Virus record (IMG/VR): IMGVR_UViG_3300033166_000001
Location: 26,654-90,653 of that record
Length of the DNA stretch: 64,000 bases
Strand: one strand, 5' to 3'
Source of the DNA: a virus
Taxonomy: Duplodnaviria; Caudoviricetes
Made by a program: the position numbers and the translations under genes. Below, piece by piece: positions 3,995-63,409 of the stretch (positions are counted from its first letter, which is position 1; each line of letters starts with the position of its first letter). Under the pieces are notes generated by a model. That model saw nothing but the letters and a program-made list of their open reading frames with translations. It had not been told where the DNA came from and did no database searches.

Positions 3995-4555
3995 ATGAAG
4001 ACTATCTTACAAGTAGTAGCAGTACTGGGGTTAATGGTATTAATATTTCTAGGAACTAGAAAGTTTTTTCCTAGAGTAGAAGTAGATGTGCAAACTACTG
4101 TAGAGTATAGAGATACTACCATTTATAAAGACAGCCTTATTCCCAGTCCTTATCCTGTAAAAGTATATTTACCAGGAGATACTGTATATCTTCCAGCAGA
4201 TAGTGCGGAGATTACAAGGTTATACCTTGCATTACATGCGGAGTATAATACTGTAAGAAAATATGAAGAGACTTCTGGAGATAGTGTGGTAAATGTTAAA
4301 GTAGAAGGCAGAGTAACTCAGAATAGGCTAGACAGTTTAAATATTATATGGGACTATAAGAAGTTTGAGAAGACTATTACTATTACAGAAACCATTGTAC
4401 CTAATAATTGGTATGTATATGGAGAAACAAACTTTAACAGTCTAAGTCTTGGAATTATTCATAGTAGAAATAAATTTGTGTATAAAGGAACCTACAACCT
4501 TAATGATAAGACTATATCTTTAGGAGTAGGGTATAAAATAGATAAGTTATGGTAA
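3995..4555 (+). CDS. Spanin-like membrane-anchored lysis protein
   Basis: N-terminal TM helix, DTTIYKDS/DTVY repeats and a C-terminal beta-strand region, in the lysis cassette. Confidence 0.5.
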   Translation: MKTILQVVAVLGLMVLIFLGTRKFFPRVEVDVQTTVEYRDTTIYKDSLIPSPYPVKVYLPGDTVYLPADSAEITRLYLALHAEYNTVRKYEETSGDSVVNVKVEGRVTQNRLDSLNIIWDYKKFEKTITITETIVPNNWYVYGETNFNSLSLGIIHSRNKFVYKGTYNLNDKTISLGVGYKIDKLW

Positions 4556-6878: not shown

Positions 6879-9800
6879 ATGGCTAAACATATAAATACCT
6901 TCCAAGGAGGATTAGATTTAGATACTAATGTAAATTCATATGATAATACTCATTATCCATATGCATTAAATATGAGGTTAATATCAGATACTGCAGGAGA
7001 ATCTGGTACTCTTACTAATATGGAAGATTCTAAAGTAGTAGTCAATGTGGAGAATTTTTTTACCGTAGTAGGGTTAGGAAGTTTAAGAGAAAATACTATT
7101 ATATTTACTAGAAATAGTAATAATGGAATGGGTAGAATATTTTCTATCTCCAACACTTCTTTGCTAGGAGGTAACACAGTTACTTTAAATTATTCATCTT
7201 CAGTTATAAGCAAACTTTTTAACTTTGGAACAGATATCCAGGTTATCGGTAGGTATGAAACTCCCTCAGTACAAAAAATATATTGGGCAGATAGTAATAC
7301 AGATAACTCTATTAGATTTGCTAATTTGGCAGATTCTGATATTAATTCTAAGAACGTAAGAGAATTCAACATTGTACAGGAAGTAGAATTAGCTTCTCCA
7401 TCGCTAAATGCTATTATTAACGGTACTTTAAAAACAGGTGTGTATCAGTACAGCTATTGCTTATTTAATAATAACGGGGCAGAAACAGGGTACTCTTCTG
7501 CTACTGTACCTATTCCTATTTCTTCTTCCTCTTTAACTGATGCAAACTCTGGTAACTTTATGGGGTCAGATTTAGGGGAAACTACTAGTAAAGGCATTAG
7601 TATTATAATCAATAATGTAGATACTAATTTTAGTAAAATCAGAGTAGCCAGATTATTTTATAGCACTCAAGAAGGTATTCCAGAAGTAGAAATTATATAT
7701 GAAGGAGATGCAACCTCTTCTGTAACTGTTAATGACAGTGGAGGAGTTACTCTTGGAAGTCTTATACTAGAGGATGTTAGATATATACCAAATATATTTT
7801 CCGCTAAAACTTTAGAGGTAAAAAATGATTTCTTATTTGCAGGTAATATTGTAGAAGATACTTTTGATATAGATTTTGATGCTAGAGCTTATAGGTTTAG
7901 AAATGATGGAGGAGATATAAAAGCCTCTATATGGAATAAGATTACTCCAGACTATGATTGGTGGAATGGTGAATATATAAATGTAAACAGTACTACGTGG
8001 GATGTACCAGAAAATTATAATTGTATTAATCCATATAATATTTTAGATTCTTTTGACATAGCAGCCCTTAATTTTAAATATAAATCAAATGGAACAACTT
8101 TAGGAGGAGAGGGTAAATATATTGAATATGAATTTGGAGTAGTCAGCACCAGACCTATAGATGATGCACCTAGTTCAGCTACTCCGCTGAAAACATTTAC
8201 CACAGGATATGATGATTTATCTAATCCTATAACTATACAAGACCAATTAGGATACCAAAGAGGAGAAATATATAGATTTGGTATAGTATTCTACGATAAA
8301 TATGGAAGACAATCCTATGTAAAATGGATTGGGGATATAAGAATGATAGATGATTCTGATGGAAAGTACTATGGTATAGTAAATGGTAGTGGAGAGATTA
8401 ATGACTTACCTATTAGATTTAAATTAAAAGCTCTAGCAGTTAGCTATCTAAAAACTCAAGGTATAGTAGGTTGGCAAATAGTAAGGGCTGAAAGAACTTA
8501 CGCAGATGCCACAGTAAAAGATTGCGGGTATTTAAGTGGATTAGAAAATACAACTACAGGTGATAAGGTAAAGTTTAGAAACAGAATACAGGTTGCAGCT
8601 GCATCAGCTACTAAGGCCCAAAATATATTTGAATATATTTCTCCAGAAACAGTATATAATAAAAACAATAATGTTAGTTACGATAGAGTAGACCTAAAGA
8701 GAGCCGTGCCAGGGGGCGGGGGGTCGCTGATTACAAAAGTATCTTCACATGCAAATGGTACAGCTTCCCCAGTTATTCATAGGGTAACTCCTAATTTTGA
8801 TGATTCTACTATATATAAGATACGTACTTCTAAATGTATGGAATTTAAAGCCGCTAAAAAGCAGGAGAATACTAATTTAGGAGTATTAGGTACTACTAGA
8901 CAGCTTACTAACTCTTTAAATCCATTTCCTATTTCCTCTGTGGATAATAGATGTGTGCATGGTACTTGCCTACTTTTAAGATTGGATAGTGTACCTGAAA
9001 ATAATAATTCAGGTTATTATGTCAGAAGAAGGTCTTATGGATTACCTTATGGAGGGTACAGCTATGATGCTATTAAAAGTACTGTGTATTATCCTTGTTC
9101 TCCTGTATTTGCTGTAGATAGTAATATAAGAACTATATGGGGAGGAGATTGCTATATTGGTATATTTGAATATATGAGAGGTTTATGTAGTACAGACTCT
9201 TCTATAGTGGGAACTTCTGCTCCATCTACTAAATTATGTAATCAAGTATTATATGTACCGGTAGAAACAAAAATAAACCTAATGTATACTGTTAACCCTA
9301 GATGGTCTAGATTAGATTCAGGAGTACAAGCCTCTCTGGGAAACAGAGAAGCCTTTACAGGGTCTTATACTTATAACGCTATGTGGGAAACTTCGGGAGT
9401 ACATGAAGCTGGTACCCCTGCCGGGGGCACCACTGAATACTATGAACAAGATTATGACTTATATGTATCTAATCCTGTATATAATATAATGGATAAATCC
9501 AAAGTATTCTTCATTAAACCTTCAGATTTAGATGAAAACAATAGTGTGGATACTAGAATATATAGAACAGGTAAAAAATTTAATGGTGAGGTATCTGATA
9601 CTTGGACAAAGTTTCCTATTAATAATCAATTAGATGTAGATACTAAATATGGAGGTATTACTAAACTTGTAAACTTTAAAGATAAACTATTCTATTTCCA
9701 ACCTAAAGGCATAGGAGTTATAGCTGTACAAGAAAGAGAAGTTGTAAGTGGGCAGAGCGGTGCTTCTACAGTATTAGGTGTAGGAGGAGTTATGGATAGG

Positions 9801-44301: not shown

Positions 44302-44913
44302 CTAAAACTGAGGTGCTTCAATTGTACCTTCAGGAATAAAATCATTTCCTGTAGGATCTGCATCTGGTTTTACATTAGCACTTACAACATTATCATATTT
44401 AGTAATCTGTAATTTAGTTTTATTAGCAGGTACCGTAATATCTTCAAATATGGGAGCATATGCTGGAAGAGTTGGGAAATCATCTTTATTAAGAATAACC
44501 TTAATCCTTAGCTCTTTATTTGCGTATTTCTCTCCAATATCCCTAATTACTACATTGCATAGACTTTTAAAATCTGTTACCCCTTGTGGCTTATAAGATT
44601 CTCCTAAAAACCTACGAGAAAGATTAGCAATAACCTTATTAAACTTTTCTACTGCTTTCTTTAAATCAGCCTCATTCTTTACATATGTTCCATCTACATT
44701 AGGCTCAAACCATCTTCTATTTGCTGTCTTACCAAATTTATCTTCAACAACTACTTCAAAATAGGCATTCTTGTCTCCTTCTGCTTCTACAAACTTTATC
44801 TCTTTAACAAATCTTCCTTCTGCAATTGCAGTTTCAGGGGTTACATCAATAAATTTACTTCCACCTACTTCTGAGGTATTCTCATCAAATCCGTAGCTTG
44901 TTGCTGTACTCAT
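44302..44913 (-). CDS. Conserved replication protein, possibly ssDNA-binding
   Basis: 203 aa with acidic C-terminal tail; between the AAA ATPase and primase. Confidence 0.5.
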   Translation of the reverse strand: MSTATSYGFDENTSEVGGSKFIDVTPETAIAEGRFVKEIKFVEAEGDKNAYFEVVVEDKFGKTANRRWFEPNVDGTYVKNEADLKKAVEKFNKVIANLSRRFLGESYKPQGVTDFKSLCNVVIRDIGEKYANKELRIKVILNKDDFPTLPAYAPIFEDITVPANKTKLQITKYDNVVSANVKPDADPTGNDFIPEGTIEAPQF

Positions 44914-44949
44914 AAAATTAATTGTTTTTATTATTATTAAATTAGTTAC

Positions 44950-44982
44950 AAAAAAGATAGTGAGGCTCCCCCACTCCTCACT
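44950..44982 (-). terminator. Intrinsic terminator ending the intergenic RNA
   Basis: AGTGAGG / CCTCACT stem, then ATCTTTTTT on the minus strand. Confidence 0.6.
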
Positions 44983-45100
44983 GTGTTAGCCTAAAGTCTT
45001 GTCTTTTAATATTACTGGTAGACCACACCTCGCCACTGGCTAAATTGTCCTCCTCCTATAAATAGGATTAACGTTGGAGGGGTTTTAAGTAATGATATTC

Positions 45101-45146
45101 GTTGTGTTCAATAAGTCAAAGATACAATCTGAAAGCAATTCACAAC
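45101..45146 (-). CRISPR. Solitary 46-nt CRISPR-like repeat of Bacteroidota type II-C form (no array, no cas genes in window)
   Basis: Minus strand GTTGTGAATTGCTTTCAGATTGTATCTTTGACTTATTGAACACAAC; terminal GTTGTG/CACAAC palindrome, length and internal sequence match type II-C repeats as I recall them. Confidence 0.75.
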
Positions 45147-45233
45147 ACTAGAATTAGGTGTACATCCTATCTAGTGCGCTCATCCTGCATATCATCAGTA
45201 TAATACTGAGAGAGGCTATGATGGCTCTATTTC

Positions 45234-45491
45234 TTAAATAACATCTTGTTCTGGAATATAAGGTCTTTGGAGAGTTTCAGTTAGTCCACTTTCTGAAGGA
45301 GTTGCTTCCTCAACTAATTCAAATCCTATAGAATACTTAGCTTTCTTAACACCTTTTAATTTAGGATTAGCCCATAAAACCTTAGCTTCTCTAGGATTAA
45401 GTTCATAATACTCATTAATCTCTTTCCTGCTCTTACCCTCTTCTAACATTGCTAGAATGTCTTTCAATACAATTTTTCTTTTTTCTTGCAT
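45234..45491 (-). CDS. Hypothetical protein
   Basis: 85 aa, possible HTH-like N-terminus. Confidence 0.6.
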   Translation of the reverse strand: MQEKRKIVLKDILAMLEEGKSRKEINEYYELNPREAKVLWANPKLKGVKKAKYSIGFELVEEATPSESGLTETLQRPYIPEQDVI

Positions 45492-45506: not shown

Positions 45507-46154
45507 TTATTTTACAAACTCTAATATTTTCTCTAATACTAAATTACTATCATTAGGAATTTGATATATCCCCTCTCCAAATATATCTGGTGGGCATTTA
45601 GAACTAGAATTATCTAAAGCCATATCAAACCATGCTTCTACCTTTTTATCATCTGTAAGTTTTCTATCAGCATATAATACTAAAGAAAACTCTTTTTCCA
45701 CGGTACCTTCCCACGCTTTACCTTGAGTTTTAACTCTTCTTTCTTTAGCTCCTCCTTCATCTTGTATCCATTCATAATGAGCAGTAAGAAATACTTCTTT
45801 TTCTACATTTTTAACAGCTGCTAAGAACTTGGCTACCAGCTCGTTGTAATAATTCCAAATATCAAAACCTTTTTTAGTTGCTTTAGCTTCTGCTAAAAAT
45901 AAATCAAATACTGCACTTAAACTATCTATTACAATACAATCTATTTCCTTATTATCATTATAAGCTTTTAAAGCAGCAAATACACCTCCTGTAGCAAATG
46001 GTTTACCGTGATATTTAAAATTTCCTTTAAATGGTAAAGGTTTGTTCTCTACATTTATAAATCCAGTTTTTTCTCTATTCATATTTCTAAAACTATATGT
46101 TTTTCCTTTACCCGATTGACTTACCAGTAATACTTTATAATAGTCTCTACTCAT
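45507..46154 (-). CDS. AAA_24 / Sak4-like P-loop ATPase
   Basis: SQSGKGKT Walker A, IVIDSLS Walker B. Confidence 0.8.
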   Translation of the reverse strand: MSRDYYKVLLVSQSGKGKTYSFRNMNREKTGFINVENKPLPFKGNFKYHGKPFATGGVFAALKAYNDNKEIDCIVIDSLSAVFDLFLAEAKATKKGFDIWNYYNELVAKFLAAVKNVEKEVFLTAHYEWIQDEGGAKERRVKTQGKAWEGTVEKEFSLVLYADRKLTDDKKVEAWFDMALDNSSSKCPPDIFGEGIYQIPNDSNLVLEKILEFVK

Positions 46155-46183
46155 AGTTTATTTATTATCTCCATTTCCATTAA

Positions 46184-46696: not shown

Positions 46697-48637
46697 TTAA
46701 AAAATGTTAAATTGTTTTGGAACTGTTTTCTTAATTGTTACTTCTATTTCTTCTCTATCTAGTAGAGATTTAGGTTCATCATGAATACATTTATGGTATA
46801 GACCCTGTACATACTCTAATTGACAAGGAATTTCATATGGCAAAGCTTTTCTTACATTTCTTGCAGAGGTCCAGTTACTTAGATTTATTTTCCCCGGAAC
46901 ATGTACTCTAAAACTAGTACCGTTAGATTCTTTAACTACTCCTGCGTCACCAACAGTGTTAGTCGCCCCTGATAGAGTGGTCAGTACTACCCAATCACCA
47001 TCTTTATATGTTTCAGTCTTATCTTTGATCTCATCTGGTCTAGCTTTTCTTAAATCTGCTGGTCTAGTCCAGTTACCATACTCTGGTCTTCCTTCAACCC
47101 GTACTCTAAAAACTCCATTTGAAGTACTAATTTCCGTAATTACTCCTACATCTCCAATCTTATTATTACTAGAAGTAGTATTACCTGTAATTACTACATA
47201 ATCTCCTACTTTATAAGATTCTTCAGATTTAGTTACAGAGGCTATTTCTTCTGGAGTACATAGTCTACAGTATTTAGCATCAACTCCAGTACTTCTACCT
47301 TTTTCAGGTCTTAGCCAAGTAGTCTCGTATACACAAATTTCAGCTATTTGAAATATAGGAATATATCTACCATCTCCATATTCATACCTAAAATCATTTC
47401 CATCCAAGACTTCTTCAGCGTATACCCAATCTCCAACCTTAAAGGGAATTTTAGAATTAGTAGGTATTTCTTCTTTAGTAGCTCTTCTAAAGTGTTTTTC
47501 CTCATAACACCAATACCAAATACTGCCATCTTCAAATGTAACTCCTTTTGGGTCTTTATACCCAGTAATCTGAACAGTCCTGCCAATATATTTATCCATA
47601 TCAGAGCTCCAATTAATGTCACTTCCAGTGATTGTAATCCAATCACCAATTTTAAATTCTTCTTTCATGGTATTTTCTAAACTAAAATCTTTTTCATAAT
47701 ATTGACCACTATTTTGTTTTTTACCTTTAGTATCTATCCATTCTATGTGAACATATTTATCATCGTAACCTACAACTTTAGCAGAAGAACCTTTAGGAGC
47801 ATTTCTACCTATATCGTTTACTAAATATATAGTATCTCCAAGTTTAAACTTTCTTACTTTTTCAGGTACCTCTTCTTTTCCCTCTTTTAGAACATACTTC
47901 TTAAATTGTTCAAGAGTTATTTCTGTATATCCCTCTAATGTATCAGAATACGGGGAGTCATTAGTATTCTCACGATTAATCAGAAAATCATAATTTCCTT
48001 CAATATGTGAGTGGCAGCCATATTTTTTATTAAACCAATCACAAGATTCTTGTCCTGCATCTTGTCTTATACACCATTTTTCAGGTAATACAAATTCTTT
48101 AATCTTATCAGGATGTCCATCTGGAAGATATTGTTGGATTTCTGATAAGTCTGTGATAAGTTTTGGAGTATATTTGTTCAAACAAAGATATCCATTTTTA
48201 TCTTTGTTCAAACAAAGATATCCATTTTTATCTTTGTTCAAACAAAGATATCCATTTTTATCATAGAATCTACTTTCGGTATTGATACTCTCCGCCCAAA
48301 ACTCTGTGTTATTCTTAATCTCTTTAAATTTAGATATCCATTTACCTAATCTGTACCACTTTCCAACTTCAAATTTAGGGGGTTTCTTACTAACTACTTT
48401 ATCTATTAAGTCTTCAGAGTCCACTAGTATTCCTTCAGGTTCATCTCTAAATAAGGTCCATTCCCCAAAATCTTGATTATATCCTAACCAACACCATAAA
48501 TTATCTTCGGGCTTAACATAAAACTTAATAATATTCACATTTACTTTTTCATCAATTTCTCTTAGATCTTCCCCCATATCTCTAAGTTCCACACTAGACC
48601 CTACTTTACAATAATATTCTCTGTTCATTTCATACAT
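46697..48637 (-). CDS. Multi-repeat protein with tandem KOW/SH3-like modules
   Basis: Six (F/Y)(K/E)xG(D/K)xx starts; four modules end in R(R/L/K)(A/C)xxxEI. Confidence 0.7.
   Translation of the reverse strand: MYEMNREYYCKVGSSVELRDMGEDLREIDEKVNVNIIKFYVKPEDNLWCWLGYNQDFGEWTLFRDEPEGILVDSEDLIDKVVSKKPPKFEVGKWYRLGKWISKFKEIKNNTEFWAESINTESRFYDKNGYLCLNKDKNGYLCLNKDKNGYLCLNKYTPKLITDLSEIQQYLPDGHPDKIKEFVLPEKWCIRQDAGQESCDWFNKKYGCHSHIEGNYDFLINRENTNDSPYSDTLEGYTEITLEQFKKYVLKEGKEEVPEKVRKFKLGDTIYLVNDIGRNAPKGSSAKVVGYDDKYVHIEWIDTKGKKQNSGQYYEKDFSLENTMKEEFKIGDWITITGSDINWSSDMDKYIGRTVQITGYKDPKGVTFEDGSIWYWCYEEKHFRRATKEEIPTNSKIPFKVGDWVYAEEVLDGNDFRYEYGDGRYIPIFQIAEICVYETTWLRPEKGRSTGVDAKYCRLCTPEEIASVTKSEESYKVGDYVVITGNTTSSNNKIGDVGVITEISTSNGVFRVRVEGRPEYGNWTRPADLRKARPDEIKDKTETYKDGDWVVLTTLSGATNTVGDAGVVKESNGTSFRVHVPGKINLSNWTSARNVRKALPYEIPCQLEYVQGLYHKCIHDEPKSLLDREEIEVTIKKTVPKQFNIF
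48173..48262. repeat. Exact 30-bp tandem repeat x3 (DKNGYLCLNK x3)
   Basis: TTTGTTCAAACAAAGATATCCATTTTTATC at 48173, 48203 and 48233. Confidence 0.95.
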
Positions 48638-49143: not shown

Positions 49144-49413
49144 TTAATCTGCAAAGATAATATTTTTCTTTATACTATCAAAAGCATACTTCATAAGCTT
49201 AAGTTCTTGATTACCTCCTTTTATCAAGGTAATATCTTTCAACCAACCTATTTCTAAAAGTTTCCCATCTGGAAGTACTACTGAAGAATGAACTGGAGGA
49301 GAATAATTAGTTAGCCAGTACTGAATAACTTTTAAAAGAAATTCAACCTCTTCTTCTTCATTTTTAAAAGAATGTTTATCCTTTAAGGTTTTTCTAAATT
49401 CTTTCTCAGTCAT
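49144..49413 (-). CDS. Hypothetical protein
   Basis: 89 aa. Confidence 0.55.
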   Translation of the reverse strand: MTEKEFRKTLKDKHSFKNEEEEVEFLLKVIQYWLTNYSPPVHSSVVLPDGKLLEIGWLKDITLIKGGNQELKLMKYAFDSIKKNIIFAD

Positions 49414-63075: not shown

Positions 63076-63341
63076 AGTTTAGATTGTATTTCCCTACTTT
63101 AGTACACATTATCTAAAGAGTGTAGGTTACTCTCTAGTGTGTTTTTATTAAAATAATAGTTATCCATACGGATTAATATGGTCAAGATTTTATAGATGGT
63201 TTGTTCCCCATCTCCTGTTACTGTGCACAGTAGAGCAGGACCTCCTACAGTATCTCTTAGGTCATGTAACCTTTAGGTGGCCATCTCCTTAAGACTAAGA
63301 GTTCTTTCAAGGGTGCTAATCCCTCTTCTGTATAACTATTA

Positions 63342-63409
63342 TGGAGAGGCAGGTAGGAATTGAACCTACATTATCACAATATCACACTTAATATATGTGC
63401 TACTGTCTC
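63342..63409 (-). pseudogene. tRNA-like element (His-type TTGTGAT loop) with intact acceptor, D and T arms and CCA but a collapsed anticodon arm; 68 nt
   Basis: GAGACAG-TA-GCAC..GTGT-GATATTGTGATAAT-GTAGG TTCAATT CCTAC-CTGCCTC-T-CCA. Confidence 0.65.

Follow-up and report, generated by a model that had tools for sequence, protein, structure and literature searches.

A single CRISPR repeat in the replication operon of a phage

What is a single CRISPR repeat doing between the replication genes of a phage, and could it interfere with the Cas9 of the host? The question is raised by a stretch of 64,000 nucleotides, in the following called the window, from an IMG/VR virus contig of 90,653 bp that is rated 92% complete. 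A sequence-only reading of the window had described one 46-nt unit on the minus strand without a second copy, and had proposed that this unit, together with a self-folding 30-nt pseudo-spacer, is a candidate RNA anti-CRISPR or decoy for host Cas9. We located the unit at positions 45101–45146 (-), where it begins with GTTGTG and terminates with CACAAC, and found no further copy in the window or in the record as a whole, which confirms its solitary state. Local alignment to the neighboring 220 nt on each side gave scores at the level of shuffled sequences and revealed no degenerate second repeat, and Rfam detected no other CRISPR-repeat-like RNA in the window at E values up to 0.05. The statement that the window has no cas gene was likewise borne out, as neither cas9 nor cas1 was found in the 90,653-bp record. 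The Rfam family CRISPR-DR49 (RF01362) aligns with the repeat from end to end at 34.3 bits (local E value 5e-4), below its gathering score of 41; since this threshold is not reached, we regard the family as a close relative and not as the same repeat.

The gene order on the minus strand is Sak4-like ATPase, 85-aa protein, repeat element, 203-aa protein and primase. All these genes are co-oriented, in line with the earlier description of the unit as intergenic in a replication operon, and the repeat lies in crRNA sense on the same strand as all flanking genes, an orientation that speaks for a decoy. The upstream gene (45234–45491 (-)) encodes an 85-aa protein of phrog_16221, of unknown function, and its stop codon lies 87 nt before the repeat; the protein matched no Pfam family and does not resemble solved Acr structures. 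For the downstream gene (44302–44913 (-), 203 aa), which is 95–97% identical in sister phages, no family was found. Small unknown proteins are present near the repeat, and comparison of the neighboring genes with Pfam, PHROG and PDB revealed no resemblance to known Acr or Aca proteins, which counts against a decoy.

The best relatives of the primase are found in crAss-like phages (31–33% identity) and the window encodes an ORF of 4125 aa; we therefore treated the phage as a distant crAss-like phage. It likely infects environmental Bacteroidales, with Bacteroidales that bear the repeat as its hosts. DNA similarity to catalogued phages was searched for and none was found. Elsewhere in the window, at 63188–63249 and 63345–63409 (-), a match to the Rfam freshwater-1 RNA (73.8 bits, above threshold) adjoins a tRNA-like match of 32.1 bits that was not called by ARAGORN.

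The repeat is identical to that of Bacteroidales type II-C arrays

When species-representative genomes were scanned, the first 26 nt of the repeat occurred exactly in 68 genome stretches. Nearly all of these belong to Bacteroidales/Bacteroidia MAGs, to which Perlabentimonas gracilis is added as an isolate. The majority are arrays that have a period of 76 nt and in which the spacers measure 29–32 nt, mostly 30 nt (508 of 726). The 3' halves of the array repeats vary by lineage. The phage copy equals the commonest variant in 46 of 46 positions; this variant is present in 148 copies in L020, L038, L040, L050/L069, L053 and L068, and the type II-C system of P. gracilis has the identical repeat as well. 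Judged by alignment, such an identity is beyond chance.

Arrays with the identical repeat adjoin cas9, cas1 and cas2, with csn2 and cas4 absent. In L020 the array follows cas9 (RuvC_III, HNH), cas1 and cas2. The P. gracilis locus (L075) encodes a Cas9 that scores 522 bits with TIGR01865, a Cas1 of the NMENI type and Cas2, has neither csn2 nor cas4 and contains one inserted ORF resembling a REP-associated tyrosine transposase. By its layout the host locus is of type II-C. The sequence-only reading had referred to Bacteroidota type II-C repeats with spacers of about 30 nt and had called for a comparison with known repeats; on both counts the Bacteroidales arrays agree with it. The inserted ORF of P. 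gracilis occupies the gap between cas9 and cas1, where L020 holds 50-nt palindromic REP/MITE-like copies (L020:3545-3873 and 4255-4334).

Read in the GTTGTG orientation, the repeat runs antiparallel to cas9, which agrees with other II-C systems. An anti-repeat (L075:15044-15066, L076:5737-5758) lies directly upstream of cas9 in divergent orientation; it is 91–96% complementary to repeat nt 2–24 and is followed by a short nexus-like hairpin and then a terminator; we assigned this element as the tracrRNA. The corresponding region of P. gracilis (L075:15035-15235) exceeds that of L076 by about 100 nt, which lie after the nexus-like part and before the terminator, and has a duplicated short motif ahead of the terminator, representing either an insertion or a long-form tracrRNA.

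In the phage, the tracrRNA-complementary segment comprises repeat nt 1–24 (45123–45146 (-)), as judged by the anti-repeat match and by cofolding, and it is unchanged in the related contig L130 described below. Cofolding of the flank plus repeat RNA with the L076 tracrRNA paired repeat nt 3–14 and 16–23 with a ddG of -18.6 kcal/mol. Host pre-crRNAs (n=11) gave values of -11 to -25 kcal/mol with tracrRNA; the phage value falls inside this range, which argues for a decoy. The hairpin of the upstream flank remained folded beside the repeat:tracrRNA duplex. The pairing that had been expected for the 5' part of the repeat is thus as strong in silico as that of host pre-crRNAs. A tracrRNA or fused sgRNA of the phage itself was looked for and none was found.

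We also compared the spacers of the repeat family with phage sequences. Among 719 sampled spacers the best match to the phage was 22 of 30 nt, which counts against a decoy. A spacer of the Bacteroidales MAG UBA2295 (L040, with the identical repeat) matches the phage record at G000:C1:17907-17936, outside the window, in 22 of 30 positions, 18 of them contiguous, and this site is possibly the protospacer of a related phage. Comparison with the other viral stretches that bear solitary repeat units (SRUs) yielded one match of 26/30, from an L032 spacer to L116, and a whole-array query against the phage collection matched nothing. The one perfect protospacer that we found was a self-match in P. gracilis, a single case from which the PAM is not derivable. 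Here the spacer L075:7714-7743 is identical in 30 of 30 positions to G001:C21:43789-43818 (L133) of the same genome; it is either a self-targeting spacer or one whose protospacer belongs to a prophage or mobile element, and the 3' flank of the protospacer begins AGCAGCGG.

The upstream flank is also present without the repeat

The 30 nt immediately upstream of the repeat (45147–45176 (-)) would be the guide of a crRNA-like product. Together with the first G of the repeat they form a hairpin of 12 pairs with a 2-nt bulge, and the predicted energy of -10.4 kcal/mol, reached by 1% of shuffled sequences, confirms the fold that had been noticed earlier. The further suggestion of a pseudo-spacer shaped to keep the seed locked found no support: the sister phage L078 has the same hairpin (-8.5 kcal/mol) without a repeat, and the 5' arm of the hairpin is deleted in the second sister phage L079. 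The flank is therefore the older sequence, and the repeat came to lie beside it. We also rejected the reading of the flank as an acquired guide spacer, because the 30 nt are common to the sister phages.

A PAM-flanked target of the flank, the search for which had been proposed, was found neither among the 719 host spacers nor in the host cas loci nor in 401 Bacteroidales genomes. In detail, no spacer of the sample matched the flank, and none of 74 host CRISPR-cas stretches contained an exact match of at least 10 repeat-proximal nt; for three genomes that share the identical repeat the whole region upstream of cas9 was covered, and the true host may fall outside this sample. In the 401 Bacteroidales genomes matches with up to three mismatches were no more frequent than those of a reversed-pattern control.

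For the comparison of alleles we used the sister phages L078 and L079, defined by 95–97% identity in the 203-aa protein, and the contig L130, a set without an outgroup, in which either the repeat or the cassette may be the ancestral allele. Two scans with flank patterns gave only the known sisters or chance matches in coding sequence, leaving four relatives in all. L078 and L079 share the flanks on both sides and carry an unrelated 74-nt hairpin cassette (L078:2242-2315) at the exact site of the repeat. The boundaries of the repeat between these common flanks are thus exact to the nucleotide, which speaks for a decoy. For the 74-nt cassette neither an Rfam match nor another copy in viral contigs was found, and the idea that it is another CRISPR repeat or a mobile element was dropped for this reason. 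In L079 the 5' hairpin arm and 125 nt downstream of the repeat site are lost. A second segment that varies between the haplotype groups is located 40 nt upstream of the repeat, where the window and L130 have a small perfect hairpin (45195–45209 (-)) and L078 and L079 have another one. Judged from predicted folds and from these alleles, the intergenic region is a plastic chain of hairpins. Because two sisters have no repeat and L079 has also lost most of the intergenic region, the repeat is dispensable, which counts against a decoy.

L130 derives from another metagenome, is 96.2% identical over 1274 nt and carries the repeat at the same site, which again argues for a decoy. Since this contig is independent, an assembly chimera was rejected and the allele has persisted. 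The L130 repeat has two substitutions, at repeat nt 31 and 33, both outside the tracrRNA-pairing segment. Divergence thus amounts to 2/46 in the repeat in comparison to 3.4% in the flanks, and to 0/30 in the 5' part where about one change is expected; with numbers this small there is no significant sign of purifying selection, a point against a decoy. As to the conservation of repeat plus hairpin, proposed earlier as a check, the repeat is kept in L130, and L078 has the hairpin without the repeat. Outside the repeat region, the Sak4-like gene region of L130 (L130:2043-2840 versus window 45512–46179) has no nucleotide match to the window in a contig that is otherwise 91–96% identical, which points to a mosaic replacement.

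Transcription signals around the repeat

A full host-type -33/-7 promoter was found at about 49152–49159, ahead of the operon, and none in the intergenic region. No dedicated promoter upstream of the repeat was seen in the intergenic region, which counts against a decoy. The repeat itself contains a match to the Bacteroidota -7 box (TAnnTTTG, 45117–45124 (-)). No further box of this type occurs on the same strand of the intergenic region. The 3' end of the repeat is in addition spanned by a -35/-10-like pair, and the embedded -7 box may have promoter activity. Repeat-embedded promoters have been reported for Flavobacterium II-C arrays (PMC10309648). The arrays with such promoters, known from Neisseria and Flavobacterium, share with the phage element the repeat family, the orientation antiparallel to cas9 and a promoter-like box in the repeat. 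The phage locus differs in having neither an array nor a downstream repeat, so that a transcript starting inside the repeat could not form a crRNA.

Downstream of the repeat, a non-coding stretch of about 125 nt (44976–45100 (-)) is conserved in L078 and L130, absent from L079 and without an Rfam family. It leads to a hairpin resembling an intrinsic terminator, with a 7-bp stem including 4 GC pairs and a T run (44949–44975 (-), with the hairpin itself at 44959–44975), which is conserved in L078 and L130 and likely forms the 3' end of any transcript that carries the repeat. The predicted fold of the intergenic region as a whole is no better than that of shuffled sequences (z of -0.09). At another place in the window (48183–48236), within the 5' part of a 646-aa ORF, both strands carry TATCTTTG boxes, four in all, which are arranged as a palindrome and are each accompanied by a -33 TTTG at a distance of 18–22 nt.

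Solitary repeats in other viruses

Camara-Wilpert et al. 2023 (PMC10651486) collected 2,103 viral SRUs of all CRISPR types except VI, including II-C examples from IMG/VR3. RNA anti-CRISPRs (Racrs) were validated there for types I-C, I-E, I-F and V-A only and for none of type II, in agreement with what the sequence-only reading had stated on the literature. The accessible part of supplementary file 3 of that study holds II-C SRUs, including Bacteroidota-type repeats with the same first 17 nt, and the phage record of the window was not found among the SRUs in it. SRUFinder, as used in that study, requires at least 90% identity and coverage; the repeat in the window has 100% of both, is overlapped by no ORF of at least 40 aa, has no full or partial repeat within 100 bp and lies on an element without cas genes. 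Measured in this way the phage element is a genuine, exact and solitary type II-C repeat. Lone viral repeats of this type were thus already catalogued in 2023 and the window copy adds one more, with a presumed effect on Cas9.

We then scanned viral contigs with 17 nt of the repeat and obtained about a dozen further solitary copies of the repeat family in unrelated contexts, a recurrence that argues for a decoy. Full-length copies are present in L002, L003, L084, L085/L090, L092, L096, L106, L112/L113 and L118. L095/L100, L102, L116 and L119 contain only the first 20–28 nt, followed directly by a terminator hairpin. 12–13 of the 16 solitary copies are in sense and lie 0–40 nt after an ORF on the same strand. 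The sense bias and the copies made of a 5' half plus terminator fit an RNA-level role for the tracrRNA-pairing half.

In L095 (L095:2491-2570), L116 (minus strand; repeat start at 7683 of the reversed locus), L119 and L102 the half-repeat follows a few nt after a stop codon and precedes a GC hairpin with a T run; these viral copies look like dedicated crRNA-mimic RNA genes. The copy in L003 (L003:2598-2643 (-)), a viral contig of 85 kb, is located inside an open frame of about 80 codons and not between genes.

Several known systems resemble the phage locus in part. SRUs and Racrs (Faure et al. 2019 as cited in PMC10651486; Camara-Wilpert et al. 2023) likewise consist of one host-type repeat in an intergenic position of a virus without cas genes, of a subtype that fits the likely host. 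The validated Racrs form a hairpin to which Cas6, Cas5 or Cas12a attaches directly, and many of these Racrs are located just after a promoter of their own, whereas the partner of the repeat in the window would be tracrRNA plus Cas9 and the repeat lies inside an operon with no dedicated promoter seen. Mini-CRISPR arrays (Medvedeva et al. 2019, as summarised in PMC11656645) also bring the repeat of the host into a virus and hold guide-like sequence found in related viruses, but comprise at least two repeats that enclose an acquired spacer. The phage locus has a single repeat, and its apparent spacer is ancestral, homologous flank. In viral scaRNAs and sgRNAs (Feussner et al. 2026, bioRxiv 10.64898/2026.06.01.729453), phage RNAs of II-A and II-C systems are proposed to sequester Cas9 and tracrRNA and to silence the cas9 promoter. 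Their crRNA-like repeat start that pairs with tracrRNA is common to both. The viral scaRNAs carry a short guide identical to that of the host scaRNA or tracr-L against the cas9 promoter and are found in Acr/Aca islands; for the phage repeat no such guide match, no Acr or Aca gene and no fused tracrRNA part was found.

Possible roles of the solitary repeat

As the best reading of the locus we propose, with a probability of roughly 45%, that the repeat is a Racr-like decoy which would tie up tracrRNA and Cas9. The repeat would be transcribed in crRNA sense within the message of the replication operon, with no promoter of its own upstream. Its nt 1–24 would pair with the host tracrRNA, and the resulting duplex would be bound by Cas9 and presumably cut by RNase III. 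In this way tracrRNA and newly made Cas9 would be diverted into complexes whose guide is the phage's own flank. As this flank adjoins the repeat rather than a PAM, nothing would be cleaved, and fewer Cas9 molecules would carry anti-phage guides, so that immunity may be weakened. Precedent speaks for this reading, both in the SRUs that act as Racrs and in the phage mimics proposed to sequester tracrRNA and Cas9. Cas9 that was loaded before infection would escape the decoy, which counts against it, as does the restriction of the validated Racrs to types other than II.

A host repeat, a hairpin in its own right that includes a promoter-like box, might also have been captured by recombination into the chain of hairpins as a neutral passenger or generic module without a role in CRISPR, serving at most as a generic RNA stem, a processing site or a promoter for the downstream 125-nt RNA. 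This would suit the unrelated hairpin at the exact site in the sisters and the other hairpin swapped 40 nt upstream, the large losses in L079, a repeat that changes about as fast as its flanks, the TAnnTTTG box and the -35/-10-like pair, and a region that folds no better than shuffles. It accounts less well for boundaries that are exact to the nucleotide without spacer remnants, for the crRNA-sense orientation and for the maintenance of the repeat in two diverged lineages, and the repeat family recurs in sense after genes of many unrelated phages, sometimes as the tracrRNA-pairing half with a terminator. We consider a neutral passenger or generic module somewhat unlikely. If a DNA-level role were assumed, with the 46-bp identity as a substrate for recombination or an integrase, e.g. 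for crossover with the host array or as a decoy site for Cas1-Cas2, one would understand why the whole repeat is identical to that of the host, even in its 3' half, which tracrRNA pairing does not require, and ideas of that type have been raised for SRUs in literature cited in PMC10651486. But the copies that are reduced to a 5' half with terminator in other phages point to RNA, a strong sense-strand bias is unexpected for a DNA site and L130 tolerates changes in the 3' half, so that such a role appears very improbable.

The remaining explanations make use of the flank as a guide. A type II crRNA consists of a spacer with the repeat behind it, so that a transcribed repeat would turn its upstream flank into a guide against sibling phages. 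In the carrier the place of the PAM is taken by the repeat, which would give protection, whereas siblings that lack the repeat retain the protospacer and could be cut by host Cas9, leading to exclusion of competitors or to homing-like spread. In L078 and L079 the 14 nt of the flank closest to the repeat site are indeed identical to those of the window, and over 20 nt L078 differs at no more than 2 positions, both remote from the repeat site, with the cassette following in place of the repeat. The Sak4-like recombination gene adjoins the repeat. Cleavage of the sibling allele hinges, however, on the PAM of this Cas9, which is not derivable from one protospacer, and the 12-bp hairpin of the flank covers the seed. 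Such targeting would moreover follow from the insertion whether it is selected or not, and only four relatives were found; we judge a guide of this kind to be improbable. Both alleles, repeat in the window and L130 and cassette in L078 and L079, occur in nature at one site, and it is a long shot that a lone type II repeat is a selfish guide-maker, which, with the carrier as the repair template, could be copied into the cut sibling allele and so behave as a homing element that borrows Cas9. A mimic of guide plus repeat in the manner of the viral scaRNAs, directing Cas9 to its own promoter and silencing cas9, would require a guide followed by a tracrRNA-pairing repeat start. The locus has this architecture, with a tracrRNA-complementary segment that includes the first repeat nucleotide, but no guide match of at least 10 nt was present in the 74 host CRISPR-cas stretches, the 401 Bacteroidales genomes gave background only and the flank is shared phage sequence rather than an imported guide, which makes this mode of action highly unlikely.

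Significance

If only the ordinary reading holds, the locus is one more entry in a known catalogue. No plain-repeat RNA anti-CRISPR is known to act against Cas9, and the type II route via tracrRNA differs from the class 1 and V-A cases. At one and the same site nearly identical phages either have the repeat or do not, which is a clean comparison provided by nature. P. gracilis is a cultured candidate host system with an identical repeat and an identifiable tracrRNA, which makes the proposed decoy directly testable. Beyond spacers, the repeat is a further type of sequence that connects an environmental crAss-like lineage with a host clade.
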